This document shows, piece by piece, positions 36,656 to 60,688 of a stretch of DNA of 64,000 nt. Source of the stretch: Calditrichia bacterium (GTDB taxonomy: Bacteria; Calditrichota; Calditrichia; JAJRVZ01); NCBI GenBank assembly GCA_963777955.1, contig CAVZSQ010000019.1, positions 32,001-96,000 on the forward strand. The letters are read 5' to 3'. The notes beneath the pieces are model-generated. The model was not told the DNA's origin. It searched no databases and saw nothing but the letters and a program-made list of their open reading frames with translations. Both the position numbers and the translations under genes were made by a program. Numbering within the stretch: position 1 is the first letter of the stretch; each line of letters begins with the position of its first letter.

Positions 36656-38128
36656 CTACTTTAACAAAACCATTTTTAAAGATTCTTTAAAATTATTTGC
36701 CTTAAGTGCACAAATATATATCCCGCTGGAAACCCTGGTTCCTCTAAAATCTGTTCCTGACCACTGGATAGATTTAAATCCGGGTGCTTGTTTCGTATTG
36801 ACCAGGGTATTGACCAGCCTGCCCGCTGTATCATATATACTCAGATTAACATCCGTTGCTTTATTCAACACATAAGATATTGTAGTAACCGGATTAAAGG
36901 GATTGGGATAGTTCTGGAATAATCGAAAATCTGCAATCTGATAATTCTGATCGTCCGGCAGTGACGTGATTAATCCGTTGGCATCTGTTTTTACCAGATA
37001 GATATCGGGCCTTGATCCGGCCCCAAAACTATGAGTATATCCTGTTAAAACAAAACCACCATCGTCGGTTAGTTCCATATCATCAGCCATTTCCTGATTT
37101 GTACCTCCATAAGTTCTGGTCCACAAGGTATCACCGTCGCCATCGGTCTTCACCAGGTAAAAATCAAAAAAGCCGGCACCATAGGTATCTGTATATCCGG
37201 AAAGAGCATATCCACCATCTGCTGTTGTTTGGATTGTAAAAGCTCTTTCATCGGCAGTTCCACCATAAGTTTTCATCCACAATGAATCACCCTGTTCATC
37301 CGTTTTCATCAACAGAAAGTCCGACGCACCCGCGCCAAAACTGCTGGTATATCCCCCTATTATGTAGCCGCCTTCCGGCAGCTCTTGAACAGAAAAAGCA
37401 ATTTCATAACTGGCCCAGTTATATCTTTTTGTCCAGAGTGTATCGCCGGTACTATCCGTTTTTACCAGATACATATACCCTGTTCCATCGCCATAAGTAT
37501 AGTCATCTCCATATCCGGCCATAATATAACCGCTGTCGGCCGTTTGCTGAACCGATTGAGCACGTAAATCTACCCTGGCAGTGCAACCGTAATTTTTACT
37601 CCAGCTCAGCTCGCCGTTCGCAGTTGTTTTAGCCAGGTAGTAACAGGCATAATAATCCTCATCGGCATACCCGCAGATGATATAGCCGCCGTCGAAGGTT
37701 GGCTTAATATCCTCGACATACTCCGCTTCGTCACCACCGATTTTTTTAGTCCACAGGGTATCGCCCTGGTTATCTATTTTCACCAGGTAGATAGCCGATC
37801 TTGCCGGTCCGGTACTGATCACCGCACCACCGGCCAGAAGATATCCATCACCGGTTTCCAGGATATTGTTGGCCCATTGTGACCAGGTGCTGCCGAAAGT
37901 CTTTGTCCAGGCAGTATCACCCAGCTCATCTGTTTTGACTAAATAAATATGCATTGAACCGCCGTCGCCAATCCGGCTATATCCGGCGACCAGATAACCC
38001 TGATCTTGCGTTTGGATCACCGCGTTTGGTTCTTCGGTCTCGACAGTACCGTATGTTTTTTCAAAATTAACCTGAGCCATTACATTCATTACTGAAAGCA
38101 TGATGATCATAATGCCAGAGATTTTCAT
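36656..38128 (-). CDS. Secreted repeat (beta-propeller-like) protein with C-terminal FlgD-Ig/T9SS-type sorting domain
   Basis: About 7 repeats of 'DGGY.....YLVKTD..GDTLWTKTYGG'; C-terminal 'FQNYPNPFNPVTTISY...SSGIYI..L...KMVLLK'. Confidence 0.85.
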   Translation of the reverse strand: MKISGIMIIMLSVMNVMAQVNFEKTYGTVETEEPNAVIQTQDQGYLVAGYSRIGDGGSMHIYLVKTDELGDTAWTKTFGSTWSQWANNILETGDGYLLAGGAVISTGPARSAIYLVKIDNQGDTLWTKKIGGDEAEYVEDIKPTFDGGYIICGYADEDYYACYYLAKTTANGELSWSKNYGCTARVDLRAQSVQQTADSGYIMAGYGDDYTYGDGTGYMYLVKTDSTGDTLWTKRYNWASYEIAFSVQELPEGGYIIGGYTSSFGAGASDFLLMKTDEQGDSLWMKTYGGTADERAFTIQTTADGGYALSGYTDTYGAGFFDFYLVKTDGDGDTLWTRTYGGTNQEMADDMELTDDGGFVLTGYTHSFGAGSRPDIYLVKTDANGLITSLPDDQNYQIADFRLFQNYPNPFNPVTTISYVLNKATDVNLSIYDTAGRLVNTLVNTKQAPGFKSIQWSGTDFRGTRVSSGIYICALKANNFKESLKMVLLK

Positions 38129-38507
38129 GAGCTTTTCTCCCTTTTAAATTTCAGATGTGCATGAATCTTTTCAGACCAAGACAGATTATCCGATAATAAA
38201 GTATGATTGGCTTAATTTAAAAAATCAAATATATTTAATTTGTATTTGCCGTCACAAGTCATATTATTTTCAAATCTTCTTTACAAAATTCATCACTATC
38301 ACATTCAGAGCAAAGATGATTTGGATCCCGCAGGTCATTCTGCACAGGAATCAGCGGACTGATCCTCATTATTATACTCAAATGGGATTAATATTTAACA
38401 ATTTTGTGTTTATATAATCTATTTATAACAATATTATATACGTTTAATTTTTATTATGTAGGATATGTTATTTAAACCTGAATTACCTTAAAACACAGGT
38501 CACATTG

Positions 38508-40823
38508 ATGTTTAAGCCCATCACCAATCCCTATATTGTCGGGAATCCGATTAAAACAAAAAAAATGTTTTACGGCCGCGAGGACGACTTCGAATTCATC
38601 CGTAAAAAACTGGAAAGTGGCAAAAAAAGTTACATCATCGTACTCTCCGGTGAACGGCGCAGCGGTAAAACCTCGATCCTCTTTCAGATTCTTAATGGCC
38701 AGTTAGGAGACAATTTCATCCCGATCCTGATCGACATGCAGACTATGGCCGGACTAAAAAATGAGGTTGAGTTTTTCGAAAAGTTTGCCCAGGAAACCAT
38801 ACGTTACCTGGACGACCGGTTTGATCTGCATAAATACAACTTTCATTCCGAGCAGGAGAGCCCCTACAAGGTTTTTTCCCGATTGCTTAATGACATGCAT
38901 ACAAACTACCCCTACAAAAATAAACTATTCCTGATCGACGAGTATGAACTGATCGAAATGAAAAGCAGCGAAGGTAGTTTAAGTCCAAGTTTTGTACCAT
39001 TTTTATCCGGGATTCTGGAGAGTGAACGCCGGATCTCGTTTATCTTTACCGGATCAAAAACATTGTCCGAGCGGGATACCACTTACTGGCAAAATTTATT
39101 CGGCAAATCCCTGTTTCGTAATGTCAGTTTTCTATCACAACAGGACACTATTCGATTGATCACCCAACCTGTGGATGGTCAAATCACCTTTTCTGATAAA
39201 GTGCTGGAATCAATATATCGTCTTACCTCAGGCCAGCCTTTCTACACCCAAATCGTAGGTCAGCACATTGTCGATTTTGCAAATGAACATCAAAAAACAC
39301 ATATCAGCACCGCTGAGCTGGACCATATCGTTAATGACATTCTGGAAAATCCCCTGCCGCAGATGATCTATTTCTGGAATAATCTTCCGGAAAGTCAGAA
39401 ACTGCTGCTCTCTCTGCTGGCAGAATTATTAGAGGATGAAAATTCTTATCTGACTGCTTCGGAGGTTGATAAAAAATCCCGTAAAAAGAAATTTGGCGTC
39501 AATCTGGACATCCAGCTGATCAATACCATTCTGGAAACATTGTACCACCATAAATATGTAGCCAAATCTGATAACAGTTATTCTTTCCAGATAGATTTGA
39601 TGCGTCAGTGGATCAAGCGGGATCACTCAATCTGGCGTGTATTGAAGGAAGTGAACATCGAATCCATCATCAGGTCAGAACGTATTGCTTCACCCTCCAT
39701 GGATATTAATCAGGCAGCTCCGGCACCAGGTATAAAGAAACGCTGGACCTGGTCAATCGCTGCTGCAGTGATCATTGTTTCGGTAGTCACAGTATGGTTA
39801 TTGTTCGACCGGACAGACGGTTCTTCTATTCAGAATCAACCTCCGGCAACCAATCCGGCCGGGATCTTGTCCGGGAACGGAAATAAATCAGACCTGGATA
39901 AACCAGTACCGGTAAAAGAAGTGATCCAGGATGAGAAAACCAACGAAAAATCAAGACCGACCATCCCAAACTCATCTGAAAAAAACAGGTCGAGACCTTC
40001 AACAGTGAAACAAAATCTGACCAAAGTGACACAACCGACCACAAACGACCTGGCACTGGACAAACTGGAATCCGTCCGGATGCTGATGCTGCAAAAAAAA
40101 GTTGAATCTGAAAATAGCGGAGCAGCTGCTCTGGCTGCCGGCACATATACTAAAGGACTTGCTGCCGAAACAGAAGCTACAAATTTCGCTGCGCGTGATG
40201 ATTATGAGAGTGCCCTGGAAAAATACCGGCAGGCTCAGGATATTTTCGCTCAGGCAGCACTGGAAAGTAAATCGGCGCTGCAACAGGAAAAAACACAAAT
40301 TACCGGTTTGATTCAACAAATTGATAAAATTCAATCCGAGCTTAAGCAGCAGCACCGTTCCCTGTCTGAATACCGCAGTGCTGAATCGTTAAGAAACAAG
40401 GGAACTGAACAATCCGCACAGGGTGACTTTACGCTGGCCCATAAAAGTTACAGCGAAGCTCTCAGCTTATATAAAGAAACCATCCATATACGAGCGGAGG
40501 ACAACCAGAAGATCCAGACTGCTGTTCAGGGGTATGCCCGCGCCCTGGAATCTAAAAACATTGCCGGTTCCAATTATATCATCAGCAGTTACAAAAAAGA
40601 ATTGGAAAGTGAATGGAAACCATTTTTTAATGTAGCTCAGGACATAAAAATTACTCTGAGTACTCACGAGATTGAATTCAGCAATACCACGGCAAGTTTG
40701 CTTGCCGATGCATTGTTACAGTACCGCGGCGCCGGTGGTTCAGGAAATAAAAATGTCTGGAAATTCGAGTTGGTTAAAACAGGATCAGACTGGATTATCT
40801 CAAAAATAAGTGAAGCTAATTAA
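38508..40823 (+). CDS. STAND-like P-loop ATPase with helical/wHTH region, one TM helix and periplasmic helical + NTF2-like domain
   Basis: 'NPYIVG..I....FYGRE', Walker A 'GERRSGKTS', Walker B 'LFLIDEYE', GxP 'TSGQPFYTQ'; TM 'WTWSIAAAVIIVSVVTVWLLF' (~39744-39806). Confidence 0.8.
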   Translation: MFKPITNPYIVGNPIKTKKMFYGREDDFEFIRKKLESGKKSYIIVLSGERRSGKTSILFQILNGQLGDNFIPILIDMQTMAGLKNEVEFFEKFAQETIRYLDDRFDLHKYNFHSEQESPYKVFSRLLNDMHTNYPYKNKLFLIDEYELIEMKSSEGSLSPSFVPFLSGILESERRISFIFTGSKTLSERDTTYWQNLFGKSLFRNVSFLSQQDTIRLITQPVDGQITFSDKVLESIYRLTSGQPFYTQIVGQHIVDFANEHQKTHISTAELDHIVNDILENPLPQMIYFWNNLPESQKLLLSLLAELLEDENSYLTASEVDKKSRKKKFGVNLDIQLINTILETLYHHKYVAKSDNSYSFQIDLMRQWIKRDHSIWRVLKEVNIESIIRSERIASPSMDINQAAPAPGIKKRWTWSIAAAVIIVSVVTVWLLFDRTDGSSIQNQPPATNPAGILSGNGNKSDLDKPVPVKEVIQDEKTNEKSRPTIPNSSEKNRSRPSTVKQNLTKVTQPTTNDLALDKLESVRMLMLQKKVESENSGAAALAAGTYTKGLAAETEATNFAARDDYESALEKYRQAQDIFAQAALESKSALQQEKTQITGLIQQIDKIQSELKQQHRSLSEYRSAESLRNKGTEQSAQGDFTLAHKSYSEALSLYKETIHIRAEDNQKIQTAVQGYARALESKNIAGSNYIISSYKKELESEWKPFFNVAQDIKITLSTHEIEFSNTTASLLADALLQYRGAGGSGNKNVWKFELVKTGSDWIISKISEAN

Positions 40824-40842
40824 TATCTATTAAGGGGGTTTT

Positions 40843-42144
40843 ATGTTTCAGCGGATTTTTTTAGGGTGTTTTATTATTTTACTGCTGGCCACTGATAGTA
40901 ATGGTCAGACCTTGCAACAACAAATAAATAATATGTTCGGCGAAGTATTGGCTCTAAACCTTAGTCCCGGACAGCATGGAGAACATTTCCTGCCGGTCAA
41001 AGTGGCCAGCAGTCAGGCATTAATAAACTCTTTAAATACATTTATCGGCACGAGCGTAGCATCTTTTCCACTAAGTTCATCCACGGCCGGTGTCACCTTT
41101 GATTTCGGTACCGGGAAACCTGTTCAAACTTCCACCAGTTTTGGTCCTATTTTTGCTGAACGTGCTCAGACTATCGGTGGTAAACGGATTAGTATGGGAC
41201 TGAATTTTACCTACATTGTTTTCAGCAGAATCCGTGGTATTTCTCTCGAAGATCTACGGCTCACTTTTACTCATCAGGATGTGGGTCTGCCGGGCCTGGG
41301 TGACAGTCCCAATGAATTTGACACAATGGATTTTTATATGCGCATGGATATTGCAGCAGCTGTTATGGCTGTGTATTTTACTTATGGAATAACCGACCGC
41401 CTTGATGTCGGCCTGGCCGTTCCGTTCACCAATATCCAGCTGAAGACCTCCCCTTTCGCGCAAATTAACAGTTTCACCTGGGTGAGTAATGACAGTGCCA
41501 ACCACTATTTCGGCGGGACCCAGACCGAACCGATCCTCACCAAATATCCGACTCCAATCAATGATGATGCCACAGGTATTGGAGATATTGCTATCCGGGC
41601 AAAATACAATTTTATCAGAGAGCGGTCCGTTGATTTTGCCGCTATGCTGGAGTACCGGATGGATACGGGAGACGCCGCAAATTTTTTAGGTGCAGGATTT
41701 TCAGCATTACGTGCTTCGGTAATAGGATCAAAAATTTCGGGTGATTTTGCACCCCACCTGAATCTTTCCTACTTGAAAAAATTTACCGATTTGGATCGTG
41801 ATGAATTTGAATTTATTGCCGGCTATGACCAGAAAATCTCCGGATGGCTGACACTGGCGATCGATGTTGTGGGACGATTTGACCTTGGCGATCCGATTGA
41901 GGGTATGCAATTCCCCACCAGTGTGGACATTAAACGGACAGTGGGCAGTACGGAATATGTCAATACTGTTTCGTTGACCAATCTGCCGAATTATGATCAT
42001 GATAATACGATCGATGCTGCCTTCGGTTTCAAGTTGAAATTAAAAGAGGCTCTGCTGGTCATGAGTAACATATTTGTACCCTTGAATCATACCGGCTTAA
42101 GAGCAGATATTATTCCGACGATGGGCCTGGAATTCAGTTTTTAA
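40843..42144 (+). CDS. Outer-membrane beta-barrel protein ('transporter'/MetA-pathway-like family suspected)
   Basis: Signal peptide; 'YGITDRLDVGLAVP', 'GIGDIAIRAKYNF'; amphipathic strands; C-terminal BAM-type signal 'GLEFSF'. Confidence 0.75.
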   Translation: MFQRIFLGCFIILLLATDSNGQTLQQQINNMFGEVLALNLSPGQHGEHFLPVKVASSQALINSLNTFIGTSVASFPLSSSTAGVTFDFGTGKPVQTSTSFGPIFAERAQTIGGKRISMGLNFTYIVFSRIRGISLEDLRLTFTHQDVGLPGLGDSPNEFDTMDFYMRMDIAAAVMAVYFTYGITDRLDVGLAVPFTNIQLKTSPFAQINSFTWVSNDSANHYFGGTQTEPILTKYPTPINDDATGIGDIAIRAKYNFIRERSVDFAAMLEYRMDTGDAANFLGAGFSALRASVIGSKISGDFAPHLNLSYLKKFTDLDRDEFEFIAGYDQKISGWLTLAIDVVGRFDLGDPIEGMQFPTSVDIKRTVGSTEYVNTVSLTNLPNYDHDNTIDAAFGFKLKLKEALLVMSNIFVPLNHTGLRADIIPTMGLEFSF

Positions 42145-42212
42145 CACGATAATCGAAGAAAATATGAGGCTGAAACTTAGGCCTGCTGAAAATTAAATAA
42201 AAGATATAGGCG

Positions 42213-44855
42213 ATGATCGGAACCACAATAGCACACTATAAGATTTTAACTAAACTTGGTCAGGGTGGAATGGGACATGTATATCTGGCCGAGGATCTGC
42301 AGCTTGGACGGCGTGTTGCCATCAAGTTACTGGCACCGGAATTTGCTCTGGATCCTGGTATTAAGGAGAGATTCAAGCAGGAGGCCCAGGCCGTGGCAGC
42401 GCTCAGTCATGCCAATATCGTTACGATCTATGAATTTGGAGATTTTAATAATAATCCATACATCGTGATGGAATATATAGATGGAAAGTCCCTGCGTGAA
42501 AAACTGGCAAAAACAAAACTTCCCTGGCCGGAGGCTATCACCATAATCCGGCAGATCTGTGAAGGATTGAATAAATCTCATCGTACCGGCATCATCCACC
42601 GTGATTTAAAACCGGAGAATATTCTGTTTGACTCAGACGGAGGAGTAAAGATATTGGATTTTGGTCTGGCCAAATTCCGGAATCATCAGAACATCACCCA
42701 GAAATCCATGCGTCTGGGCACGATCAATTACATGTCTCCGGAACAATTACGGGGCAAGGAGATAGATGTACAATCCGATATTTTCAGTCTGGGCGTGATT
42801 TTGTATGAAATGCTCTGCGGTCAACTGCCCTTCACTGCTGAGTATGAGGCGTCCTTGATCTATGCCATTCTCCATGAGCAGCCCCGGCCAATAAAAGAGT
42901 ATGCTCCCGGCCTGCCGCCGGCCCTGCAGAAAATTATCGAGATGGCGCTGGCCAAGGATAAAACATCACGGTACAGATCGGTTAACGAATTATCCCTGGA
43001 TCTGGCTGCAATCCAGGACCACCCAGGCAGCGCTAAACCTGAATCTGAAATAGGTGATCCGGGCAGTGTTGAACAACTGCTGGAACATCGCCAGCAGATA
43101 GATAAACTGATCGAGTCAAAATATAAAAAATCGATAGTCATCCTGATCAGCGATATCGTCGGATCCACCGAGTTTTTCGAACAACGGGGCGATATTGAAG
43201 GCCGGGCAATGGTCAGCCGGCATCACCGGCAAATGTTCCCTTTGATTCAGAATTATCAGGGAGAGATAATCAAAACTATGGGCGACAGTATTATGGCATC
43301 TTTTCATGATGTGGCAGCTGCCACCCGCTGCGCCTGCGAAATGCAAATCAAACTGGCTGCCGAGAACAAAAAACTTCCTCCTGATGACCGGATTAAAATC
43401 AGGATTGCCTTACATTATGGTATGGCTGTAATTGAAGAGGGTGATGTTTACGGCGATGCGGTAAATGTGGCAGCGCGAATCGAAAAACTGACGGACGGTG
43501 ACCAGATTATGATCTCACAGTCCCTGGTGGATGCCCTGGGGCATGATACGGATCAGACGGTGGTACATGCCGGGAACGCCAGTGTAAAAGGCAAAACCGA
43601 AAAAATCGCCTTGTACAGACTGCGCTGGTTCGATGAAGAAATAATAAAACCTATCACCGAGCATGACAGTCAATTGAAAGATCTGCCCACACCGCCGGCA
43701 CTGACCGTGAGTTTCGGGGCAAATATAACCGCCCCTTACAGGATGAAGATTCCCCCGCAGACCAGCGGGGAAACTCTGGACCGGCAATTGCAAAATCCCT
43801 ATATGAATCGCGTTATGATTCAGGACAGCGCAGAATTTTATGGCCGCCGCACTGAAATTGAAAAGATCTACTCACGTATCGGGTCTTCCCGACCGCAATC
43901 CATATCACTGGTGGGTGAACGACGTATCGGCAAATCTTCCCTGCTCAATTTCATTTACCAGCCGTTCAACCGTAGCAAGTACCTGAAAAATCCGGACGAG
44001 TATATTTTTATCTTTATCGATTTTCAGGAACGCCGCGGCATCGGCATCAAAGAATTTTTTACTATTATATTCCAGGCTCTCCTGGATGCTTTCGACGGCA
44101 ACCTGGAACTGAATCTCGAACCGGATTATGAAGGCTTTAAAAAGGTAATCTCAACCTTCGACGAACAGAAACTTAAATTAATCATGTTGTTTGATGAATT
44201 CGAGCTGGTCACAAAAAACGAAAACTTTGATACCGAATTCTATTCTTTCTGCCGTTCGATTGCCAACAATTATAACGTAGCCTATCTCGTTTCTTCCGGC
44301 CGCAATCTGCAGACATTGTGTCACAGCAAACAAATATCGGATTCTCCGTTTTTTAATATTTTTTCCAATATAACCCTGGGTCAATTTACTGTGGACGAAG
44401 CAAAAAACCTGATTTGTAAGCCAGCCGAGAAATTAAACTATTCATTGAGTTCATATGTTGATTTTGTACTGGATCTTGCCGGATTTTATCCATTTTTCAT
44501 TCAAATGGCCTGTGCCGCCCTCTATGAACATATAAAAAAGGGAGAGCAGCACAGCAAATCCTTTCTGGAAAAAGTAAAAGATGATTTCCTTGATGAAGCC
44601 AAGGTTCATTTTCAGCAGATTTGGGCCACTGCTGATGATGAGCAGCGCGAAGTTTTTCTGAACCTGAGTCTGGGCAAAAAAATTCAGCCTGAACAGGAAT
44701 ATCTGCTCAAGATTCTGGAGAAAGAAGGATATTTAAAACCGGGTAAAAAACGTCCTGAAATATTTTCTTCTCTGTTTAAAAACTTCATCCTGAACAGATT
44801 CGGAACTGGACGAAAATCTTCCTCCCGGATCTGGTCTTTCATAAAAAGTGCCTGA
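42213..44855 (+). CDS. Ser/Thr protein kinase - class III adenylate/guanylate cyclase - STAND-like ATPase fusion
   Basis: Kinase 'LGQGGMGHVY/VAIK/HRDLKPEN/DFG/YMSPE'; cyclase 'SDIVGST/KTMGDS/DVYGDAVNVAAR'; ATPase 'NPY..FYGR/GERRIGKSS/MLFDEFE/AGFYPFFIQ'. Confidence 0.92.
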   Translation: MIGTTIAHYKILTKLGQGGMGHVYLAEDLQLGRRVAIKLLAPEFALDPGIKERFKQEAQAVAALSHANIVTIYEFGDFNNNPYIVMEYIDGKSLREKLAKTKLPWPEAITIIRQICEGLNKSHRTGIIHRDLKPENILFDSDGGVKILDFGLAKFRNHQNITQKSMRLGTINYMSPEQLRGKEIDVQSDIFSLGVILYEMLCGQLPFTAEYEASLIYAILHEQPRPIKEYAPGLPPALQKIIEMALAKDKTSRYRSVNELSLDLAAIQDHPGSAKPESEIGDPGSVEQLLEHRQQIDKLIESKYKKSIVILISDIVGSTEFFEQRGDIEGRAMVSRHHRQMFPLIQNYQGEIIKTMGDSIMASFHDVAAATRCACEMQIKLAAENKKLPPDDRIKIRIALHYGMAVIEEGDVYGDAVNVAARIEKLTDGDQIMISQSLVDALGHDTDQTVVHAGNASVKGKTEKIALYRLRWFDEEIIKPITEHDSQLKDLPTPPALTVSFGANITAPYRMKIPPQTSGETLDRQLQNPYMNRVMIQDSAEFYGRRTEIEKIYSRIGSSRPQSISLVGERRIGKSSLLNFIYQPFNRSKYLKNPDEYIFIFIDFQERRGIGIKEFFTIIFQALLDAFDGNLELNLEPDYEGFKKVISTFDEQKLKLIMLFDEFELVTKNENFDTEFYSFCRSIANNYNVAYLVSSGRNLQTLCHSKQISDSPFFNIFSNITLGQFTVDEAKNLICKPAEKLNYSLSSYVDFVLDLAGFYPFFIQMACAALYEHIKKGEQHSKSFLEKVKDDFLDEAKVHFQQIWATADDEQREVFLNLSLGKKIQPEQEYLLKILEKEGYLKPGKKRPEIFSSLFKNFILNRFGTGRKSSSRIWSFIKSA

Positions 44856-44858
44856 TGC

Positions 44859-46127
44859 TTATCGTTTAGCTCTGATTATCCAATCTTCCACATCATTTCT
44901 TTCACGGGGAATTTGTTCGGACAGAACGCGGTAACCGGAGCCGGTAACCAGAACATCATCTTCGATCCTCACGCCGAATTTTTTATCGGGAAAATAGATA
45001 CCAGGTTCGACTGTTACTACCATACCCGGTTTCAATTTCATACCATAGTCGGCAACATCATGTACATCCAGACCAAGATGGTGACAGGTACCGTGGATCA
45101 GGGCATCGATATATCCGGCTTCACGAATTACAGTTCGTACCCTGTCCTCGACGTCCTTGGTAGTTATACCCGGCTTGATAATTCCAGTTGCAGATTTCAG
45201 GGCCTGCAGCACAACATCGTAGATATGGGCTTGTTCCGGATTAAATTTTCCATCGACAGGGAAAGTGCGGGTGATGTCGGCGGCATAATGCTCCCATTCT
45301 GCTCCGACATCGACAAGCAGCAGCTGGCCTGGTTCCACTGAACGGTCGCGCTTCTGATAGTGCAGAATGGTCGATTCTGCTCCGGTACCTATGATCGGAT
45401 CGAAGGACATGTGCTGCGCTCCCTGGCGCTTGAACGAGTTTTCCAGAATTCCGTCCAACTGATATTCCTTCACTCCGGGACGGACCCCGGCCAGCATATC
45501 TGTTATACCGAGGTAGGTTATCTGTACGGCCTTTTCGATGGCAGAAATCTCGGCCGCAGACTTGACCATACGCATAGTTTCAATCTGCTGCGATGAATTT
45601 TTGAGGTATGTCCCGGGTACACGAACCATTATTTTTTGATAAAGATCCAGATCGGGTGGTAGATACCCTGCAGGACCAACCAGTGACGAAATGAGCTGCA
45701 GGATGGATGTATGTTTCAGATTTGCGATTAAAACTTCATCGAGTTCACCCGTGCGCATAATATCTTCAAATCCAAGTGCTTTTCTAAGTGAATCACTTAA
45801 AGACGGACGGCGACCTATCCAGCGCTCAAGTTCAATATCACGGGGAGGCAGGAATAAAACCTGGCGGATCTGCTCCTGCGGGGCCAGCAGCAGTATAGCT
45901 CCCCGTTCATCCACACCCGTCAGGTACCAGAAATTCCCATCCGCCCGGTAACCGGTCTCAGTCTCAATTCCCTGCGAGTAGAGCACGGCGATCCCCTCCC
46001 CCAGCGATTTCAACAGAGCTTCGCGGCGTTCGATATAAGTTTTAGGGAATTGAATGTTCTTTTCTTCTTTTTCCTGGGCCAGGACAAAGGCAGGAAGTAT
46101 TAATAAAACCATGAATATTCGCATCAT
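44859..46127 (-). CDS. Xaa-Pro aminopeptidase (M24B) with signal peptide
   Basis: 'FWYLTG', 'LHY', 'DVGAE...YAADITRTFP', 'HHLGLDVHD', 'TVEPGIY', 'GVRIEDD'; GGAGG RBS. Confidence 0.9.
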   Translation of the reverse strand: MMRIFMVLLILPAFVLAQEKEEKNIQFPKTYIERREALLKSLGEGIAVLYSQGIETETGYRADGNFWYLTGVDERGAILLLAPQEQIRQVLFLPPRDIELERWIGRRPSLSDSLRKALGFEDIMRTGELDEVLIANLKHTSILQLISSLVGPAGYLPPDLDLYQKIMVRVPGTYLKNSSQQIETMRMVKSAAEISAIEKAVQITYLGITDMLAGVRPGVKEYQLDGILENSFKRQGAQHMSFDPIIGTGAESTILHYQKRDRSVEPGQLLLVDVGAEWEHYAADITRTFPVDGKFNPEQAHIYDVVLQALKSATGIIKPGITTKDVEDRVRTVIREAGYIDALIHGTCHHLGLDVHDVADYGMKLKPGMVVTVEPGIYFPDKKFGVRIEDDVLVTGSGYRVLSEQIPRERNDVEDWIIRAKR

Positions 46128-46217
46128 AATTCCTCCACTAGGCACCTAAAGACTGAACCAGGCAGCAGCAGGCATCGATCTTATTCATCAATAGAATTTC
46201 ACCTGGACCAGATAGCT

Positions 46218-47602: not shown

Positions 47603-49981
47603 ATGTGTAAACGAATCATTTTCCTGATATACCTGCTGTTTTTGTCTGCCGGCTGTGTACGGCCAGTCGGAGTTGATTTTTGATGACACTCAACTGGCCA
47701 CCATACAGATCTTCATCGATCCGGATTCACTGGCTCTTATTTATGCACCGGGCAATGAAGAAAATGACCATGAATACCCGGCCCGTTTTATCTTCCGGAA
47801 TGCTGCCGTGCATGATTCGGTTGAAAATATCGGTTTCCGCCTGAGAGGAAATACATCACGCTATGCAGCCAAGAAATCATTTAAAGTTTCGTTTAATACT
47901 TTTGAGCGCGGACGTAAATTTTACCGACTGGAAAAACTGAATCTGAACGGAGAACATAACGATCCCTCCGTGATCCGCGCTAAATTGTGCTGGGATCTGT
48001 TTAAAACCATGCAAGTTCCCTCGTCCCGCGCCTTCCACACCAGGTTTATATTAACGGCGATTATTATGGTCTGTATATTGCAGTCGAACATGTCGATGAA
48101 AACTTCGTCAGGGAAAATTTCGCAGATGACAGCGGGAATCTCTATAAATGCCTGTGGCCGGCGGACCTGACCTATCTTGGCACCACACCGAATGTTTACA
48201 AATTGATGAACGGCAACAGGCGCGTATATGACCTGATTACCAATGAGGCAAGCGGACGATTATACCGATCTGGAGAGCCCTGATCTATCTCCTGCAATTC
48301 AGTTCAACCGAGGATTTTCCGGAATTGATTCAGCAATATTTCAATGTCGATCTGTTCCTGCGCGCCCTGGCAGTTGATGTCGCTGTCAGCAGCTGGGACA
48401 ACTACTGGTTCTTAAAAAATAATTACTATCTGTATCACAATCCCGCCAGCGGCCAGTTTGAATTCATACCGTATGACTACGATAATACCTTCGGCATCTG
48501 GTGGGACGGAATTCTAGCGGGAGTTGACTGGGGAAACAGGTATATTTACAGCTGGGGACATCCCACCGAAGACCGGCCATTAGTGGAAAGAATCATGGCG
48601 GTAGCCTGATTTTAAAAACCGCTTCAGTTATTACCTGAAACACCTGCTGGACCATGGTTTTAATCCCGATACACTTTTTCCCAGGATAGATGCCATTCAT
48701 GATATGATATTATCGGCTGCCCATGACGATCCGTACCGGCCGCTGGACTATGGTTTTACCGTAGATGATTTTCACAAATCCTATGATCAGGCCCTGGGCG
48801 CCCATGTCACCTATGGTTTAAAGCCGTACGTAACAACCAGAAGAAATTCCGCTCTGTCGCAATTGATACTTAAGAATATGGCTCCCGTCCTATCAGACCT
48901 GGAACATTTTCCCATGACACCGCAGACCAGTGATCCTATTTCGTTTAAAGTAACTATTCTGGATGACCATTACGTCCAGGCTGTACAACTATTCTGTTAT
49001 ATCGATAATTCCTGGCAACTCATCGATCTGCTTGATGATGGAATCCATGACGATGGACAGGCCGGAGATAATATTTACGGCAACATTTTACCGGCATTGA
49101 ATCAATCTACAAGTATTTCCTATTATATATCTGCCCGGGATGACTCAAATGCGGTCTCAACCTTACCGGCCGGTGCTCCGCAAAATGTCAACGAAATCAA
49201 AATCGGTTATGCGCAGGTAGCACTTTATATAAATGAATTCCTGACCAGTAATATTACAGATAGTGTCGATGAATCCGGCGATCATGAAGACTGGATCGAA
49301 ATTTATAACGGCGGTTCAGGCAATATTTCCCTGAACGGTTTGTACCTGAGCGACAACTTCAATAATCCTGCCAAATGGGCTTTGCCTGATACAGTTCTTT
49401 TACCGGGAGAATTTTTATTAGTCTGGGCCGATGAAGAAGGGAGCGAAGGAAGTCTACACGCCAATTTCAAACTGGACAAAGACGGGGAAAGGATTGGTAT
49501 ATTCAACAGCGACTTCGCCGGCCGGGCGCCGATAGATACCCTTTCTTTCAATCTGCAAACCGCGGATGTGTCCTACGGCCGTTCTACCGATGGCAGCGTC
49601 CCCTGGGAATTTTTCAATAATACCACTCCCGGTCAATCAAACACCACAACCGGGATTAACCCTGCTGTGCAGAATTTAGTTAATCATTATTTTGTGCTGC
49701 AGCAAAATTATCCCAATCCGTTCAATCCTTCCACCACGATTCGCATTGAGATATTTGTGCCAGGGAGCCTGCGGATAAATATCTGCGATCTTAACGGAAA
49801 AACCGTCAAACAATTGCAACAATTCTATGGTTCACCGGGATATTACGAATGGATCTGGGATGGTCATAATAATGAAGGTAAACAGGTCGCTTCGGGTTTG
49901 TATTTTTTAAACGCGGTGCTGCGAGCAGGTAATCAAACGATCAGCACCTGCCCAGTTATGAAGATCGTACTATTAAGGTAA
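47603..49981 (+). CDS. CotH kinase family protein with lamin-tail domain and FlgD-Ig/T9SS-type C-terminal domain; about 5 indels split it into several ORFs
   Basis: 'GFRLRGNTSR..KKSFKVSF', 'KLNLN...DPS', shifted-frame 'YINGDYYGLYIAVEHVDE', 'WDNY..KNNYYLY', 'PYDYDNTFG', LTD 'YINEF..DWIEIYN', 'QNYPNPFNP'. Confidence 0.88.
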
Positions 49982-51277: not shown

Positions 51278-51404
51278 GACATGGGGAAGTCCGTGAGAAT
51301 CGGACACAGTCGCGCTACGGTATTGAGCAGCCGTTGAGGTGAGCTCTAAGTCCGAGTACCATGATAATCGTCACTCTGTTTTTGTCGCGTCAACGAAGGG
51401 AGTG
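51278..51404 (+). ncRNA. Cobalamin riboswitch (compact class II-like) with RBS-sequestering hairpin
   Basis: GGGAAG-tccGTGAGAATCgga-CACAGTCGCGCTACGGT...AAGTCCGAGTACC (B12-box-like); CATGG/CCATG closing stem; CACTC...GAGTG hairpin over the RBS; precedes a TonB receptor. Confidence 0.82.
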
Positions 51405-51408
51405 TATT

Positions 51409-53596
51409 ATGACAAAGAATTTTTGCTCGCCTAAAAACTTCATCCTGATCCCGATCTTCATACTGACCAGTCTTACTGCTCTTGCAGCACAGGAAAAAGG
51501 CAGTATATCCGGTACAATACATGATCAAAAGAGCGGTAAACCTGTAGAAAATGTATCCATTTACCTGCAGCCTGTTTCGTATGGCGTTGAGACCGGTATG
51601 GATGGACGTTACAATCTCTCCGGTATTCCGGCCGGAACTTACCGGATTGTGATCAGCCGCATTGGCTACCAGTCCATCACCGGCCAGATGATCACTATCC
51701 ATGACGGTGATACAATTGAACTCAACTTTGATTTACAGCCAAAAATATTATCAGACATCGGGGGAATAGTCATTACCGCCACCCGCAGTCCATCCTTAAG
51801 CAACACCATTCCGGCATCAGTGGATCTGCTGGACCGGGTGAAACTCGAGCATCAAAATCCACAGAATCTGGCTGAAGTGCTGAATAATATTCCCGGACTT
51901 GCAAATTAAAGATTACGGAGGACTGGGCGGTATTAAATCCGTCTCCCTGCGTGGATCTAATGCCGAACAGGTCCTGGTCCTTCTGGATGGGCAACGGCTT
52001 AACAATCCCCAGAACGGCCAGGTCGATTTCAGCACACTATCTGCTGCCGGTCTGGACCGGATTGAGATAGTCCATGGCGGTAATTCCGCTTTGTACGGTG
52101 CCGATGCCGTCGGTGGTGTGATCAATCTGATTACACGCCAAGACAGTGAAAAACCCGGAATGAGTGGATCATTCAGTACTATGCTGGGTTCGTTTAATTC
52201 CCGGTCGAATGAAGGTTTACTGCAATATCAACGCAATAAATTTTATGCAGCGCTTACCTATCATGATTTACACAGTAGCGGTGATTATAGTTATGCGGAT
52301 CTGAGCGGGCAGCAGCAAAAGCGGGATAATAATGATCTATTTTCACAGGATCTGTTTGCCCGCATTAAATTCGATTTCGGGAACCTGTGGTACCAGCAAA
52401 AATTAAACCTCTCCTATAAATTTTACTATACAGAACGAGGCAGTCCCGGTCCACTCTCATTTCCCAGCCAGACCTCCAGATTGTATAATCGGACCGATCA
52501 GATCAATGCCCTGTATTCCCGCAAAATTTTCAATCCATTGACCGAATTGCAATTACAGGGGTATGCCCACTTTGGCTGGAACCGTTACAGCAGCGATGAT
52601 TACTCGCTGCCTGACGAGAATAGATCCCATAACGGCAGCTATGGTCTGGAAGCGCAAATAAAAACTATTCCATCTGCTGCCCAGCAGAGGATATTCGGCC
52701 TGGGCACACGATACGACTGGCTGACCGGCAGTGATTTTTTGACAGATCACCGGCGGATTTTATACTATCTTTTTATTCAGGATGAGATAGAATACAGTTT
52801 TAAGCGGCCGTCAGCAATTAAATCTGTACTGATAATACCGGCATTACGATTCGATTCTTACTCGGACTTCGGATCGCATTTCTCTCCTAAAATCGGCACT
52901 GTTTTTAATTTCGGAACAACCTGGAATATTGCTATCAAAGGAAACGCCGGATTTATATACCGTGCTCCGATTTTTAACGAACTATACTGGCCGGAAGACG
53001 ACTGGTCAAAAGGTAATCCGGAACTTAAACCGGAAAGTGGTTATGATTGGGATATGGGCTTACGGTTACGTCCATCATTACCGGTAGAATCGGTTTTGGA
53101 TATAACCTATTTTCAGATCCGCATGAATGACCTGATCGCCTGGCAATTCCAGGATCAAAAGTATGCGCCGCAGAATATCGACCGGACCCTTTCCAGAGGC
53201 ATTGAACTTAACACCGAATTGCAGCCGGTCAAAGATGTCATTGCTGTCAATTATAATTATACCTACCTGTCGGCAATAAACATGAAAACAGACAAAACAC
53301 TGAATTACCGTCCCCGTCATACCGGTAATGTATCACTGCTCTTTTCCTGGGGCGGCGCTAAATTAGAATTACAATCTCAATCGGTAAGTCACAGGTATAC
53401 GGATGCGGCAAATACTCAAAAATTAGATCCCTATACTATATATAATATTATTTTTTCGGCGCATCGTATTATGGGACCTGTTGAGCCTAAGTTATCCCTG
53501 CAGATTAATAATCTTCAAGACAGGCAATACCAGATTATTCAGGATTACCCTCTGCCCGGGCGGGAAGTGCGGGTGAATTTGGGAGTGGCGTTTTAA
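51409..53596 (+). CDS. TonB-dependent receptor, probable cobalamin transporter (BtuB-like), with N-terminal carboxypeptidase-regulatory-like domain; +1 indel near 51898
   Basis: 'IVITATR', plug 'SLRGSNAEQVLVLLDG', 'RIEIVHG..SALYGADAVGGVINLIT', 'GNPELKPE', C-terminal 'PGRE...GVAF'; riboswitch upstream. Confidence 0.88.
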
Positions 53597-53615: not shown

Positions 53616-54673
53616 TCAGCGGATTTCTCTCCTTCTTAATTCTTTTACAGCACTGATCATAGCCAGATATGTATCCGGTGGTACGTAGTCGGGAATCGAA
53701 TTTCCGGAACCCAGTCCGAATCCTTTTGATTTCAACCGGTATTCCCTGCCCTTTTCCAGAACTAGTTTATAAACCGTATCGGTATCATACAGGCACAGGT
53801 CATTCATATCGATTCCGCCAAAAAGTCCGATACAGCCGTTATACAATTCAATCCATTTATCGAACGGGGCAATGATGTCTTCATTAGAATGTTTTGCGTC
53901 GATGCCCAGAGCGATCAGATCATCCATCACGCTGAAGATATTGCCACAACTGTGCAGCAGGAATTTCTTGCCGGCTTTATGGACCAGGTCAATGATGCGC
54001 TTGTATTGGGGGAATACATGCCGACGGTAAGTTGCCGGCGACAGCAGTGTGGATACTTTGTAACCCAGATCGTCACCCATGCGGAAGAAAACGAATATAT
54101 CCTGATAACGTTCAATTACCCACTCCACAACTCTTCATAAAGGTCGCCGATACGCCGATACAGATCGGTAAATAATTGCGGATCTTCAAATTGCATGAGG
54201 CACAGGGATTCAAAACCGACCAGATCTTCGCTGGCTTCAAAGATTCCATAACCGCAGCCACCATAAGCTTTCATACCCGCCGGTAAAGCAGTGCGGATGG
54301 CCTCAAAATGGGGAGCATGTGTCTGGCGGAATATTGCCGGGATATCTTTGAACGGATATTTCTCAAAATCTTCGCGTGATTGTATTGGCCCTTTGCCGCC
54401 CCTGATCGCACCATGTCCCGGAAAACAATCGCAGACCGAAGCTTCATAGGCAAAAGCATCATAGGTCATGCTGCGCCAGAAATTGATAATTTTAGCATAA
54501 TAATCGCGGTAATCTGCTTCAGTCGTTCCGCTGAGGTCAAAAGATTGGTTGGTAATTTTAGACATCACCTGCGGATCGATACTATGTTCATATAAAGGCA
54601 GTCGCGGAGGTTTATTATTGTACAAAACCTTTAGGATGTTAGAATAATCGGGAATGAATTCAGAATTTATCAT
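53616..54673 (-). CDS. Uroporphyrinogen decarboxylase / MtaA-CmuA methyltransferase-like family protein; 1-nt deletion near 54125
   Basis: 'GIFE', 'MGDDLG', 'LHSCGN', 'GLFGGID', 'LGSGNSIPDYVP' across two overlapping ORFs. Confidence 0.8.
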
Positions 54674-55100
54674 TATAAAGTTACCGATAAAAAAATAGTA
54701 CAGTATGGCCTGCTGTTCTATAAATACTAAAATCAAAAAAATATTTGTACCTTTTATCTAATTGCATTATTTTCTGACTGTGCATGACGAATTCTTGTTA
54801 TTTGCACGACAGACGATCAATTAATATCTTGTGGTCATTTTTTTAGTTAAAATATATATCTCTGTACAATAATTATTGGTGTTACTGTTTTGATCAATAA
54901 TCTGCGGAATAGTAGTAAAGATCTATTCCCGGGTAAGAGTGAATATAATTTTACATATTTGTGCAAACCCTGAATACTATGCATAATAAATATAATAAAA
55001 TTTAAGTATAAAATATTTTTTAAAATATCATTACAGTATAATAGCCGACCACTCTTGAAATTTTATTTTTGTGAATCTTAACCGTATGGAGGAACGGAAA

Positions 55101-55487
55101 ATGTATCGAAACAGTTACAGTATTAAAGCAATCTCGCTTTTATTAATCATTATTCTGGTATCGATGCCAATGGTGCTGATTGCTCAGGATCAGGCTGAAA
55201 CTTTTAGCCAGGGTAAAATGGATGGTGAACGTGACACCAGAGGTAATGCGGTCTGGATTCTGGCTGGTATCGGATGTGGTATATTCGGTGTAGGTGCAGC
55301 CTACTTTATTAAACCCAGCGTTCCGGCTCAGGTACTGGTAGGGAAGTCTTCGGATTATGTACTGGGCTATACCGAAGGCTATCAGAATAAAGCGCGCAAT
55401 AAAAATGCGGGATATGCATGCGCCGGCTGGGCACTCTTCGTGGCTGTTTATCTCGCCGCCGGTGGATTTAATACCAGTTCCAACTAA
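55101..55487 (+). CDS. Small secreted/membrane protein with Gly-rich hydrophobic segments
   Basis: GGAGG RBS; signal peptide; two further hydrophobic segments. Confidence 0.75.
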   Translation: MYRNSYSIKAISLLLIIILVSMPMVLIAQDQAETFSQGKMDGERDTRGNAVWILAGIGCGIFGVGAAYFIKPSVPAQVLVGKSSDYVLGYTEGYQNKARNKNAGYACAGWALFVAVYLAAGGFNTSSN

Positions 55488-55650
55488 CTCGAATGAGCCG
55501 AGGTACATTATTAAGAGAGCATAAGCGCATTGAATATTGGACTGTTTTGCGGGAGGTGTTGCTTACTTACTTTATTCTATTACGGCAGATTCAACTTCAC
55601 CGCTAAAATTATGATAATTGGTGCAGTTTAAAGCAGGATGAGAAAATAAA

Positions 55651-56349
55651 ATGAGAGTTTCCACTTTGTGTAAAAACTTTTTACGCTGGTTTTATATGAT
55701 AAATCTGATTAATTCGATTATCGTTTTGCCCTGCTGTACGGCTCAGGTGAAACAATCTGGTAGTAACCTATCCTCTCACTCGCCAATATATTTTGGAGCT
55801 AAAATTGGTACGGCAATTGCGGACGGCGATATTCAAAATACCTGGAAAACTGTATTCGGTGGTTCGGCCCTGGCTGGTTACCAATTGAGTCTAAAACTGG
55901 CCTTTGAAGGTGAATTTAATATATACCCGCTTCTACCGAAATCGGATAATAATAAAATTATTGATCCAGGGTCAGGCGCTGAAATAGAACTGTATGAATT
56001 CGGCAGTTACTTCGGTCTGTTGATGTCATTAAAATATTCACTTTATCCTGTCGCGGTTCACGATATCTCTCCTTTTATTTCCGGCGGTGCAGGTTTTGAA
56101 TTTATCAGATGGGATCTCACCGACGAAGTCAGAGGCATGACCGATATGGCCAGTAGTGACGGAATTTACGCCACGGCATTTACCGCATCGATAGGTGCAG
56201 ATATCCAGGTGCAGGAGAACCTCTTCACTTTTGTAAATTTTCGTTACGTTTATCATCTCTGGTCGGATGAGTTGATTGAATCAAAGCATAAAATCAATTT
56301 CAATGGCAATGTATTTATTTTAACCTTTGGCGGAGCATTTTATTTATAA
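55651..56349 (+). CDS. Outer-membrane beta-barrel domain protein (OmpA/OmpW-like 8-strand)
   Basis: 'YFGAKIG', 'SPFISGGAG', 'FVNFRY', terminal 'FGGAFYL'. Confidence 0.7.
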   Translation: MRVSTLCKNFLRWFYMINLINSIIVLPCCTAQVKQSGSNLSSHSPIYFGAKIGTAIADGDIQNTWKTVFGGSALAGYQLSLKLAFEGEFNIYPLLPKSDNNKIIDPGSGAEIELYEFGSYFGLLMSLKYSLYPVAVHDISPFISGGAGFEFIRWDLTDEVRGMTDMASSDGIYATAFTASIGADIQVQENLFTFVNFRYVYHLWSDELIESKHKINFNGNVFILTFGGAFYL

Positions 56350-56381
56350 GCGTCAGCAATCTGATTTTTAGCAGTCAATTT

Positions 56382-58407: not shown

Positions 58408-58468
58408 TACTCACCGTATCCGGATTTCCTGACCAACAACTACTTTATATTAAATAAAACTGAAATCC

Positions 58469-60158: not shown

Positions 60159-60225
60159 CCTTGCAATATTATTAACATAACAGTATCTGGATGTAAAACA
60201 AACCAAAATATAGAAAACTGGCTTT

Positions 60226-60639: not shown

Positions 60640-60688
60640 GCTGATACCAATAGTTCGATCATTTCGATATAAATACAAAGCGGATAAG

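Follow-up and report, generated by a model that had tools for sequence, protein, structure and literature searches.

A candidate trans-envelope signalling operon of Calditrichota joining an outer-membrane barrel to a kinase and cyclase through two STAND ATPases

Analysis of a 64,000-nucleotide stretch of Calditrichia DNA (the window) revealed a conserved operon of three genes, whose products we consider, at a probability of roughly 0.55, to act in trans-envelope signalling, with a receptor kinase replaced by two proteins that are coupled via a STAND hetero-oligomer. On the level of sequence, the genomic evidence supports such a functionally split receptor kinase, rejoined through a pair of STAND domains.

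Architecture of the three-gene operon

The operon consists of three open reading frames in a row on the + strand, on which all features of the genes given below are located. Gene 1 (38508..40823, 771 aa from ATG) encodes a single-pass membrane protein with its N-terminus inside, gene 2 (40843..42144, 433 aa) an outer-membrane barrel protein, and gene 3 (42213..44855, 880 aa) a soluble fusion of kinase, class III cyclase, and nSTAND2 ATPase. The ORF coordinates confirmed the layout described in a first-pass annotation of the window, i.e., co-orientation, intergenic gaps of 19 nt (gene 1/2) and 68 nt (gene 2/3), and a divergent upstream (36656-38128) as well as a convergent downstream neighbour (44859-46145), both on the - strand. 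Except for the kinase and cyclase domains, all three genes are single-copy in their own genome (tblastn). Scanning of positions 38100-45000 for promoters and terminators was uninformative, with 23 and 9 sites compared with 15.4±4.2 and 6.0±2.3 in shuffled sequences, and no target, regulator, or transcription factor gene was found in the operon. The three-gene arrangement was encountered again in further genomes as well as in metagenomes and is thus far beyond chance. The same order was indeed recovered elsewhere, with gene 1 preceding the barrel in nine out of 10 metagenome loci and the kinase-cyclase gene being reached in seven. Many relatives carry a fourth gene between gene 2 and gene 3, missing from the 68 nt of the window (42145..42212), which encodes a stand-alone STAND with eroded motifs (DD in 11/11); this four-gene form was also found in a second phylum (L178). 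Orthologue identity amounts to 56-76% for the STAND domain of gene 1 (STAND1), 51-72% for that of gene 3 (STAND3), and 23-40% for the periplasmic part, and the STAND domains are hence the best-conserved and the periplasmic part the least conserved portion.

The product of gene 1 is arranged in the order STAND ATPase, transmembrane (TM) helix, linker, helical repeats, and NTF2-like domain. Its cytoplasmic ATPase module STAND1 (aa 1-385, 38508..39662) has intact Walker A and Walker B (DE) motifs and matches the Pfam families AAA_14 (E 8e-9) and ATPase_2 (E 3e-7), with no nSTAND2 match at E ≤ 0.1. The single TM helix (aa 415-433, 39750..39806) stands out by the mean hydropathy of its 19-mer (2.43 vs 1.23 for the next best in gene 1) and by basic residues on its N-terminal side, KKRW being located just before it. 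Pfam and hydropathy bear out a cytoplasmic P-loop ATPase with one TM helix and a periplasmic part. The latter comprises long-helix repeats (aa 516-656, 40053..40475), the first unit of which resembles the DUF4398 protein PA2901 (4fm3; Z 12.7, rmsd 2.1, 95 aligned), and a C-terminal NTF2/SnoaL-like domain (aa 657-771, 40476..40820). This domain is weakly conserved, with a mean column identity of 32% and one nearly invariant residue.

Gene 2 encodes a signal peptide, an N-terminal extension of ~95 aa, and a 12-stranded barrel of the FapF/COG4313 type. The N-terminal hydrophobic stretch, the C-terminal FSF, and the fold match support its earlier description as a secreted beta-barrel ending in Phe. 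Best fold match of the model was FapF (5o65; Z 25.3, rmsd 2.2, 235 aligned), followed by 4rl8 (Z 24.0, rmsd 2.5, 238 aligned), while the next family reached only Z 20.4; Foldseek supported the fold of the FapF/COG4313 type with E 2e-14. Phenol_MetA_deg (PF13557) scored 18.4 bits on gene 2, below its cut-off of 22, and is present in many listed homologues and in 34-63% of members in the nearest atlas clusters; a TonB-receptor Pfam match was not found in gene 2. The most conserved segment precedes the barrel (aa 77-115, 41071..41187; aa 77-102 poorly ordered in the model), with a conservation of 0.77 vs 0.55 for the barrel wall, making it a candidate partner-binding element. Further features are five invariant histidines, long outer loops, and a model helix (aa 55-73) that aligns with the autotransporter lumen helix, the aligned model ranges beginning at 47-58 for five chains. 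The PTG lateral-gate motif, as named in PMC6173800, is retained in the barrel family (P 78%, T 93%, G 100% in 67 rows), and gene 2 of the window reads DTG at this position.

In gene 3, no stretch with a mean hydropathy above 1.57 was found, which together with Pfam agrees with the earlier view of a TM-free fusion of a Hanks kinase, a class III cyclase, and a second, related ATPase. The Hanks-type Ser/Thr kinase (42237..42974; Pkinase 9-254, E 6e-57) has VAIK, HRD, and DFG intact and is followed by a class III nucleotidyl cyclase with adenylyl-type residues by Pfam and alignment (43116..43616; Guanylate_cyc 302-468, E 2e-21) and by STAND3 with intact Walker A and B (43788..44852; nSTAND2 559-812). 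Of the cyclase residues found, we take the two Asp to be metal-binding, Lys and Asp to contact the substrate, and Asn and Arg to stabilize the transition state. They also occur, within the available sequence, in 15 of 16 other distinct rows, one row lacking its start; the cyclase is degenerate in one locus (L043). The catalytic motifs of kinase, cyclase, and STAND are thus all intact. STAND1 and STAND3 share 23% identity over 328 columns (E 9e-10), both keep GK[TS] of Walker A and DE of Walker B, and the other motifs reported as common to the two ATPases were found again. Conserved arginines occur in the alignment of each STAND group, none being assignable as an arginine finger without a structure. 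Sequence searches of the PDB with STAND1 and STAND3 gave zero matches at E ≤ 0.01.

Co-occurrence and exchange of modules

Among 86 genomes of the phylum, the barrel was strongly matched in 12 (a 13th match was weak, E 6e-5) and the NTF2 profile in exactly the same 12 (one weak extra, E 9e-7), with "strong" defined by cut-offs chosen after the E-value gaps were known and with a profile partly built from the same loci, so that the fair test is confined to the remaining 74 genomes, many of them incomplete, in which the profile is missing. One genome (G065) has two copies each of barrel and NTF2 domain. STAND1 was strong in 12 genomes and STAND3 in the same 12, and all four parts were present in 11 of 86. 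The barrel thus goes together with the NTF2-like end of gene 1, and STAND1 with STAND3, as the first-pass annotation had implied by pairing them. This co-occurrence shows a functional link rather than contact, and the related genomes are not independent. The two exceptions separate input and output modules. G068 has the barrel and a kinase-TM-PEGA-NTF2 protein without a close STAND pair, whereas STAND1 of G054 lacks both TM and periplasmic part and is immediately followed by a kinase-kinase-cyclase-STAND3 gene, in a genome with no barrel or NTF2 match.

The same exchange was visible in a set of 79 barrel loci belonging to several phyla. A protein with the NTF2 domain is present at 71 of them, at a distance of ≤350 nt in 64, and a contig end adjoins the barrel in seven of the eight remaining loci. 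The cytoplasmic domain of this protein was a kinase in 52, a STAND in nine (eight plus the frameshifted L028), and a cyclase in one case, and it was uncalled in nine. STAND3 accompanies seven of the nine STAND loci (the remaining two break off shortly after the barrel) vs none of the 52 kinase loci, and the kinase-cyclase-STAND gene is likewise confined to the former. Co-transcription is not general, since barrel and partner gene lie on opposite strands in 45 of 71 loci. In L049, barrel and kinase-cyclase-STAND3 occur without a gene 1 in the surrounding 10 kb, pieces of gene 1 being found on other contigs of that genome, and L179 has STAND1-TM with no STAND3 gene within the 15.8 kb examined. 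An apparent 1070-aa TM-barrel fusion (L034) turned out to be a shadow frame, a kinase-TM-NTF2 gene being present there instead. Longer proteins with the periplasmic profile gave 13 matches among 8000 scored candidates, headed by a kinase or an ATPase or uncalled; a kinase-cyclase-TM-NTF2 fusion was not among these 13, a weak negative given the number scored.

When the barrel tree is rooted, at its midpoint only, barrels of the STAND type fall among kinase-type lineages, the branch between both types being unsupported (41/16). The idea of a receptor kinase split in two and rejoined by a STAND pair is supported in part. A one-piece kinase-TM-NTF2 protein does replace genes 1 and 3 beside the same barrel family, but descent of the gene 3 kinase from a receptor kinase found no support. 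In a tree of 56 kinase rows, built by a quick method, the window kinase has no supported placement among receptor kinases; for this reason a literal gene split is not claimed and was dropped. A grouping with Calditrichia receptor kinases (SH-aLRT 96) was seen solely for the additional first kinase present in L043 and L150, and the six rows of this group include two unrelated kinases from the genome of the window.

Proposed relay and competing explanations

In the relay that we propose, the barrel and the NTF2-like tip of the gene 1 periplasmic stalk would act as a unit, the NTF2 domain most likely touching the conserved segment ahead of the barrel (aa 77-115). Events at the barrel (ligand, damage, or cell contact) would alter clustering or conformation of the single-pass protein, whose cytoplasmic end is a Ser/Thr kinase in the widespread form. 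In the window lineage, STAND1 and the nSTAND2 domain of gene 3 would instead form a nucleotide-switched hetero-oligomer, recruiting gene 3 to the membrane and juxtaposing its kinase and adenylyl cyclase domains. Hanks-type kinases and class III cyclases are both activated by dimerisation. The output would be protein phosphorylation and cAMP, probably in a regulatory response, and the third STAND of relatives may be an optional, probably inactive subunit that tunes the ring and was lost in the window. Barrel-periplasm contact, STAND hetero-oligomerisation, outside-in direction, and activation by clustering, as well as the signal and physiological role of the relay, are what we infer from these data. 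A hetero-multimer of two STANDs has been predicted for the nSTAND2 family in PMC8195603. Complex prediction for barrel (alignment A2) and NTF2 domain (A3) scored 0.16 and 0.25 vs a mark of 0.32, in a setting in which the controls were not folded, and was given no weight for or against the contact.

Unlikely, but the best of its competitors, is a channel plus pocket without contact, in which the barrel imports a hydrophobic molecule that the NTF2 pocket binds to trigger the STAND or kinase output. NTF2 folds often bind small hydrophobic ligands, the barrel family retains the PTG motif in the 67 rows, and a parallel system uses FadL, another barrel for hydrophobic uptake. COG4313 proteins have been implicated in such uptake as well (PMC4493636). 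On the other hand, a single nearly invariant NTF2 residue is unlike a conserved ligand pocket, the window barrel has DTG rather than PTG, and conservation peaks in the pre-barrel segment instead of the wall. In addition, the periplasmic domains of the parallel systems are of the TPR or PEGA type, made for interaction and not for ligand pockets.

We regard as rather improbable that the operon serves anti-phage or counter-invader surveillance, with adsorption or envelope breach leading to dormancy or death via kinase and cyclic nucleotide. The distribution is patchy (12/86 genomes, spread over 6/8 families), distant STAND pairs carry CHAT or TIR effectors, the gene 3 kinase matches the PD-T4-6, Stk2, and mad6 kinase models, and nSTAND2 was described in predicted counter-invader operons (PMC8195603). 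However, the best 25 of the 42 PADLOC matches of gene 3 are limited to the kinase domain, and the locus is single-copy and highly conserved, without a nuclease, TIR, or pore effector. Its surroundings show little sign of a defence island: among 100 proteins encoded around 11 STAND-type loci, a single one matches PADLOC at E ≤ 1e-8 (a figure without control set, from a database that may cover the phylum poorly), over 52 residues of a dCMP-deaminase-like gene. The defence role which the first-pass annotation had offered as an option thus receives little support from the neighbourhood.

Very improbable is an inside-out machine, in which the barrel would serve transport or secretion, energised or gated by the ATPase-stalk protein and regulated by kinase and cyclase. 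FapF exports amyloid subunits, and this secretion channel is the best fold match (Z 25.3); helix aa 55-73 matches the autotransporter lumen helix. Against it, a kinase, incapable of mechanical work, replaces the ATPase at 52 loci with the same barrel, and the gene maps contain no conserved cargo gene. That STAND1 and STAND3 each homo-oligomerise and are merely co-regulated is barely credible, as despite full catalytic motifs in both and a mutual identity of only 23% they share the same 12 of 86 genomes and remain adjacent in G054 after loss of barrel and TM, STAND1 having no effector and STAND3 no sensor of its own.

Relation to described systems and wider significance

The closest published relative is the nSTAND2 two-gene operon (PF20702; Kaur, Iyer, Burroughs, Aravind 2021; PMC8195603), which likewise has two neighbouring genes with a STAND module each; in the window, genes 1 and 3 each contribute a STAND, with the barrel gene between them, and gene 3 scores 159.5 bits against the nSTAND2 cut-off of 24. 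As described in the text of that paper, the published systems fuse one eroded STAND to HEPN or GT4 and have no TM, periplasmic, or barrel part, whereas both STANDs of the window look active, STAND1 is membrane-anchored, and Pfam finds kinase and cyclase as the only outputs. The STAND pair alone is a variant of the published prediction of a STAND hetero-multimer. The first-pass annotation knew of no named system with this layout, and our search, mostly of open-access literature without bioRxiv/PMC13581612 supplements, returned no description of it either; part of the locus is nevertheless listed in a supplementary row of PMC8195603 (barrel, STAND, and kinase+cyclase in a Calditrichaeota genome), in which gene 1 is missing and which is not discussed, Calditrichota being absent from the main text.

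In TonB-dependent transducer/anti-sigma/ECF sigma signalling (e.g., FoxA-FoxR-FoxI, PMC11637429), a barrel with an N-terminal extension touches an inner-membrane protein at its C-terminal domain in the periplasm, and this protein controls a cytoplasmic output, a logic shared by the proposed relay. No parts are shared: the window has a 433-aa, 12-stranded FapF/COG4313-type barrel instead of a TonB-dependent receptor, its predicted output is kinase/cAMP through STAND ATPases, and no sigma or anti-sigma factor was found among the three genes and three flanking genes scanned. Taken as a whole, the layout belongs to neither the nSTAND2 two-gene nor the TonB-signalling kind.

Regarding the single parts, COG4313/SphA (Pput2725, 4rl8) and FapF (5o65) share 12 strands, the segment before strand 1, and, at the level of the family, a PTG-type motif with the window barrel, which differs by a longer N-terminal extension, long outer loops, and the five invariant histidines. 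Its family is constantly linked to kinase- or STAND-bearing membrane proteins, in contrast to catabolic or amyloid genes for COG4313/FapF. PknB/Stk1-PASTA proteins are single-pass Hanks receptor kinases of kinase-TM-extracytoplasmic layout, activated by dimerisation. The one-piece relatives resemble them in this layout but have NTF2, DUF4398, or PEGA periplasmic parts and a dedicated outer-membrane partner, and in the window kinase and membrane protein are separate gene products. An NCBIfam scan yielded no family reaching its cut-off, NF033483 of the PknB/Stk1-PASTA kinases remaining below. Avs/NLR-like receptors (PMC13581612) also tie a STAND switch to an effector by oligomerisation; in its main text, where the word "periplasm" is absent, they are cytoplasmic and sense phage proteins, unlike the separate sensor and effector STANDs and the predicted periplasmic sensor of the window. 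PADLOC gave no full-length match to Avs, PD-T4-6, Stk2, or MADS, the best 25 of 42 gene 3 matches covering the kinase region only, with one weak 55-residue match for gene 1 (E 0.001) and none for gene 2.

The same logic recurs with other parts. A FadL-type barrel, TPR-TM-STAND, and STAND-kinase were found together in three of four loci examined, a second layout combines STAND1-TM-PEGA with a secreted Phe-ending protein and kinase-STAND3, and distant membrane-STAND and STAND pairs bear CHAT or TIR effectors (L187, L188). Described routes from outer membrane to cytoplasm are mainly TonB-dependent transducers and envelope-stress relays, and the bacterial STAND ATPases studied are mostly cytoplasmic sensors. 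Tentatively, and with somewhat more doubt than belief, these systems might be read as an undescribed class of TonB- and sigma-independent cell-surface signalling, extending from Gemmatimonadota to Calditrichota and built from a FapF-like receptor barrel and a plug-and-play STAND pair. Lumen helix and conserved periplasmic segment of the barrel would dock on the NTF2 tip of the single-pass protein, and the STAND pair would couple any membrane sensor (NTF2, PEGA, or TPR, each with its own barrel family) to any cytoplasmic effector (kinase, cyclase, TIR, or CHAT), which would make it a bacterial equivalent, responsive to extracellular signals, of sensor/helper NLR pairs. If true, this would add a signalling route ending in Ser/Thr phosphorylation and cAMP, assign many orphan receptor kinases of Gemmatimonadota, Zixibacteria, and related phyla both a partner and an input open to testing, and establish STAND pairs as a coupling of membrane receptor to detached effector. 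Owing to the natural kinase/STAND swap and the natural deletions in G054 and G068, each step of the relay is directly testable.

Proteins of the locus

The locus under study (window 38508..44855, + strand) comprises three ORFs separated by gaps of 19 and 68 nt and bounded by a divergent and a convergent gene, as the first-pass annotation had described it, and the assigned topology also held. Gene 1 (38508..40823, 771 aa) lacks a signal peptide and carries a single TM helix (aa 415-433), gene 2 (40843..42144, 433 aa) combines the N-terminal hydrophobic stretch and terminal Phe of the proposed secreted protein, and gene 3 (42213..44855, 880 aa) is devoid of TM helices. Pfam analysis confirmed the kinase, class III cyclase, and nSTAND2 domains of gene 3, the latter scoring 159.5 bits against a cut-off of 24; gene 1 matched AAA_14/ATPase_2, and gene 2 matched Phenol_MetA_deg below threshold. 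The ATPases of gene 1 (STAND1) and gene 3 (STAND3) share 23% identity over 328 columns with Walker A and Walker B intact in both, and the catalytic residues of kinase and cyclase are kept in the window and in most relatives.

The model of the C-terminal 256 residues of gene 1 (pLDDT 96) shows long helices and, after them, an NTF2-like domain. Of the helices, the first unit resembles the DUF4398 protein 4fm3 (Z 12.7). Many NTF2-fold proteins match the NTF2 part at Z 12-14, none being clearly best, among them the anti-sigma RsgI9 domain (7sjy) and PDV2-bound ARC6 domain (5gtb); this fold likeness is no functional proof.

The barrel model of gene 2 (pLDDT 81.8, built on 49 sequences) is closest to FapF (Z 25.3, rmsd 2.2, 235 aligned), then to the COG4313 channel Pput2725 (Z 24.0, rmsd 2.5, 238 aligned); background on COG4313 and FapF is taken from PMC4493636 and PMC6173800. 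Autotransporters rank behind both (Z 20.4), and Foldseek concurs. Ahead of strand 1, the model has three helices and also a segment with pLDDT <50 (aa 77-102); aa 77-115 form the best-conserved stretch of the family, with a mean column conservation of 0.77 versus 0.55 for the barrel (67 rows). The alignments of five autotransporter chains start at model residues 47-58, suggesting a position of helix 55-73 in the barrel lumen of the model. Five histidines (H45, H48, H144, H221, and H305; window 40975-41757) do not vary across the 67 barrel sequences, which come from several phyla, and represent a possible metal or ligand site.

Two separable modules

Scanning one genome per species yielded 399 barrel relatives, the best 80 of which gave 79 loci. 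A profile of the gene 1 C-terminal NTF2 domain, iterated on these loci, matched 71 of the 79, and in 64 of these its distance from the barrel ORF does not exceed 350 nt. Of the eight loci without a match, seven run into a contig end at the barrel, and L049 is the one true local miss. The domain is single-copy in four of five distant genomes picked for having the barrel; high copy number therefore does not explain the adjacency. The partner gene shares the barrel's orientation in 26 loci and runs against it in 45, most of these in Gemmatimonadota. On the cytoplasmic side, the partner protein has a Hanks kinase in 52 loci, STAND1 in eight plus L028, where gene 1 is split over two frames, and a cyclase in one; of the nine unassigned loci, six are cut by contig ends. 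None of the 52 kinase loci has STAND3, as against seven of the nine STAND1 loci; the remaining two STAND1 loci stop immediately behind the barrel. These counts overstate independence, many Gemmatimonadaceae rows being close kin, and they include L056 from an unpublished genome (G087) in the 71 and the 52; L056 is also part of alignments A2-A4 and both trees.

The cyclase-TM-...-NTF2 protein of L084:11288-14188 adjoins the barrel, with the cyclase as direct cytoplasmic output. Tandem pairs of barrel paralogues occur in L053, L055, and L076, the latter two with a kinase-TM-NTF2 gene on either side of the pair.

The co-occurrence expected by the first-pass annotation was borne out among 86 genomes of the phylum. 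The barrel was found in 13 genomes at E<=0.001. The NTF2 profile, to which some of these genomes contributed sequences, matched 13 at E<=1e-5, and the 12 strong matches of each are the same genomes. STAND1 was found in 16 at E<=1e-10 and STAND3 in 15, again with identical sets of 12 strong matches (E<=7e-75 and best E<=4e-63, respectively), the cuts between strong and weak having been chosen after the E-value gaps were seen. All four are present in 11 genomes, and one genome (G065) has two copies each of barrel and NTF2 domain. G068 contains the barrel with a kinase-TM-PEGA-NTF2 protein and no close STAND pair. G054 (88% complete), in which the profile survey gave neither a barrel nor an NTF2 match, encodes a 428-aa STAND1 without TM helix, directly followed by a kinase-kinase-cyclase-STAND3 gene with degenerate kinase motifs (L150:10220-15433), a naturally occurring loss of the envelope module. 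As the strong-match sets coincide pairwise and G068 and G054 each keep one pair, barrel/NTF2 and STAND1/STAND3 are, at the level of sequence comparison, two separable modules.

Further copies, history, and parallel layouts

Ten metagenome loci found via STAND1, including near-duplicates, show gene 1 followed by the barrel in nine cases, the kinase-cyclase gene being reached in seven; one ends in gene 1. In the phylum of genome G086, a STAND1 relative was detected at E<=1e-30 in 12 of 167 genomes, and L178 represents a complete four-gene form. The fourth gene, found in many loci between barrel and effector gene, encodes a 355-410-aa stand-alone STAND3 paralogue; in 11 of 11 examined, Walker A is eroded and Walker B reads DD in place of DE. 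It is missing from the window and its nearest relatives, which nest within a clade having it (100/99 inside 96/89 and 100/100); loss in the window lineage is thus the simplest reading.

In the midpoint-rooted barrel tree (41 rows, every fourth Gemmatimonadota row retained), the 14 STAND-type barrels form one group with two kinase-type barrels of Calditrichia (92/88), kinase-type lineages from five other phyla fall outside it, and the branch dividing both types is without support. A kinase-type ancestor would fit this topology, which is not proof. Descent of the gene 3 kinase from a receptor kinase was not recovered in the kinase tree; the receptor-kinase split is functional, and literal fission is not claimed. 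An extra kinase gene just upstream of gene 1 in L043:5390-6913, with a hydrophobic segment and helical repeat and no NTF2 domain, is possibly a remnant of a one-piece receptor kinase. In L028, L031, L041, L045, and L049, single genes (gene 1, the barrel gene, the stand-alone STAND, or the kinase) are interrupted by frameshifts or stops that reflect either assembly errors or decay.

Weak STAND matches of family f7 (Calditrichia) encode a signal peptide-TPR-TM-STAND protein, opposite in topology to gene 1, followed by a STAND-kinase in all four loci read. A FadL-type barrel (PF03349 above cut-off) lies directly upstream in three (L155:6327-11887, L156:5564-11062, L158:5484-11026) and none in L157:7044-11152. 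Six loci of G086's phylum (L180:5910-11729, L181, L182, L183, L184, and L165 from unpublished G087) place STAND1-TM before a kinase-STAND3 without cyclase, with PEGA in both membrane proteins scanned. In five, a ~310-aa Phe-ending protein lies between them; L184 has a gap of matching size and no listed ORF. This protein has no Pfam family (four scanned), and its resemblance to outer-membrane barrels by atlas features is a lead only, as is the reading of these loci as a third type of barrel joined to the STAND pair. More distant membrane-anchored STANDs with TPR, HEAT, or multi-TM sensors are paired with STAND-CHAT, TIR-STAND, or bare STAND (L187:5104-10724, L188:3912-9996, L185, L186), the former two with STAND-CHAT or TIR-STAND; these look more like immune systems. 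Because the FadL, ~310-aa/PEGA, and CHAT/TIR layouts repeat the pairing of membrane-STAND and STAND-effector, the STAND pair looks like a reusable coupling of membrane sensors to soluble effectors.

Proposed signaling model and alternatives

The locus is a real, conserved, modular system. Kinases and cyclases of these types require dimerization. In our preferred reading, held at a probability of roughly 55%, the barrel together with the NTF2 tip of gene 1 would provide the input, the gene 1 stalk would cross the periplasm, and gene 1, by clustering, would seed a STAND1/STAND3 oligomer gathering the kinase and cyclase domains of gene 3 for output; we infer its contacts, direction, and signal. 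The comparative data strongly support the trans-envelope wiring of the first-pass annotation, with putative barrel-periplasm and STAND-STAND contacts. That the barrel is a hydrophobic-solute channel feeding the NTF2 pocket without contact is unlikely. Defence as the main role, also considered initially, is less probable still, with a PADLOC match for one of 100 flanking proteins and little sign of defence context. An inside-out transport machine is very improbable, and uncoupled STANDs are scarcely credible.

The literature searched, with incomplete coverage, contained no account of the barrel paired with a kinase-TM-NTF2 protein or of the STAND-split arrangement. The earlier view that no named system has this layout stands to that extent, except that one Calditrichaeota row in a table of Kaur et al. 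2021 shows barrel, STAND, and kinase+cyclase, with neither gene 1 nor any comment (PMC8195603). In the nSTAND2 two-gene operon outlined there, whose products are predicted to form a hetero-multimer, one STAND is inactive and carries a HEPN or GT4 fusion, two defining features that the window lacks. TonB-dependent cell-surface signaling (PMC11637429) follows a similar logic with no component in common.

Elsewhere in the window, the GC content drops to 33-40% at 54000-64000 compared with ~45% for the genome. Two overlapping ORFs at 51361-53596 (182 and 565 aa) are one gene, probably with one frameshift, which we take to be TonB-dependent-receptor-like. Two ORFs at 47655-49981 (+ strand; 171 and 425 aa), seemingly pieces of one probably frameshifted protein, presumably encode a CotH-like secreted protein.
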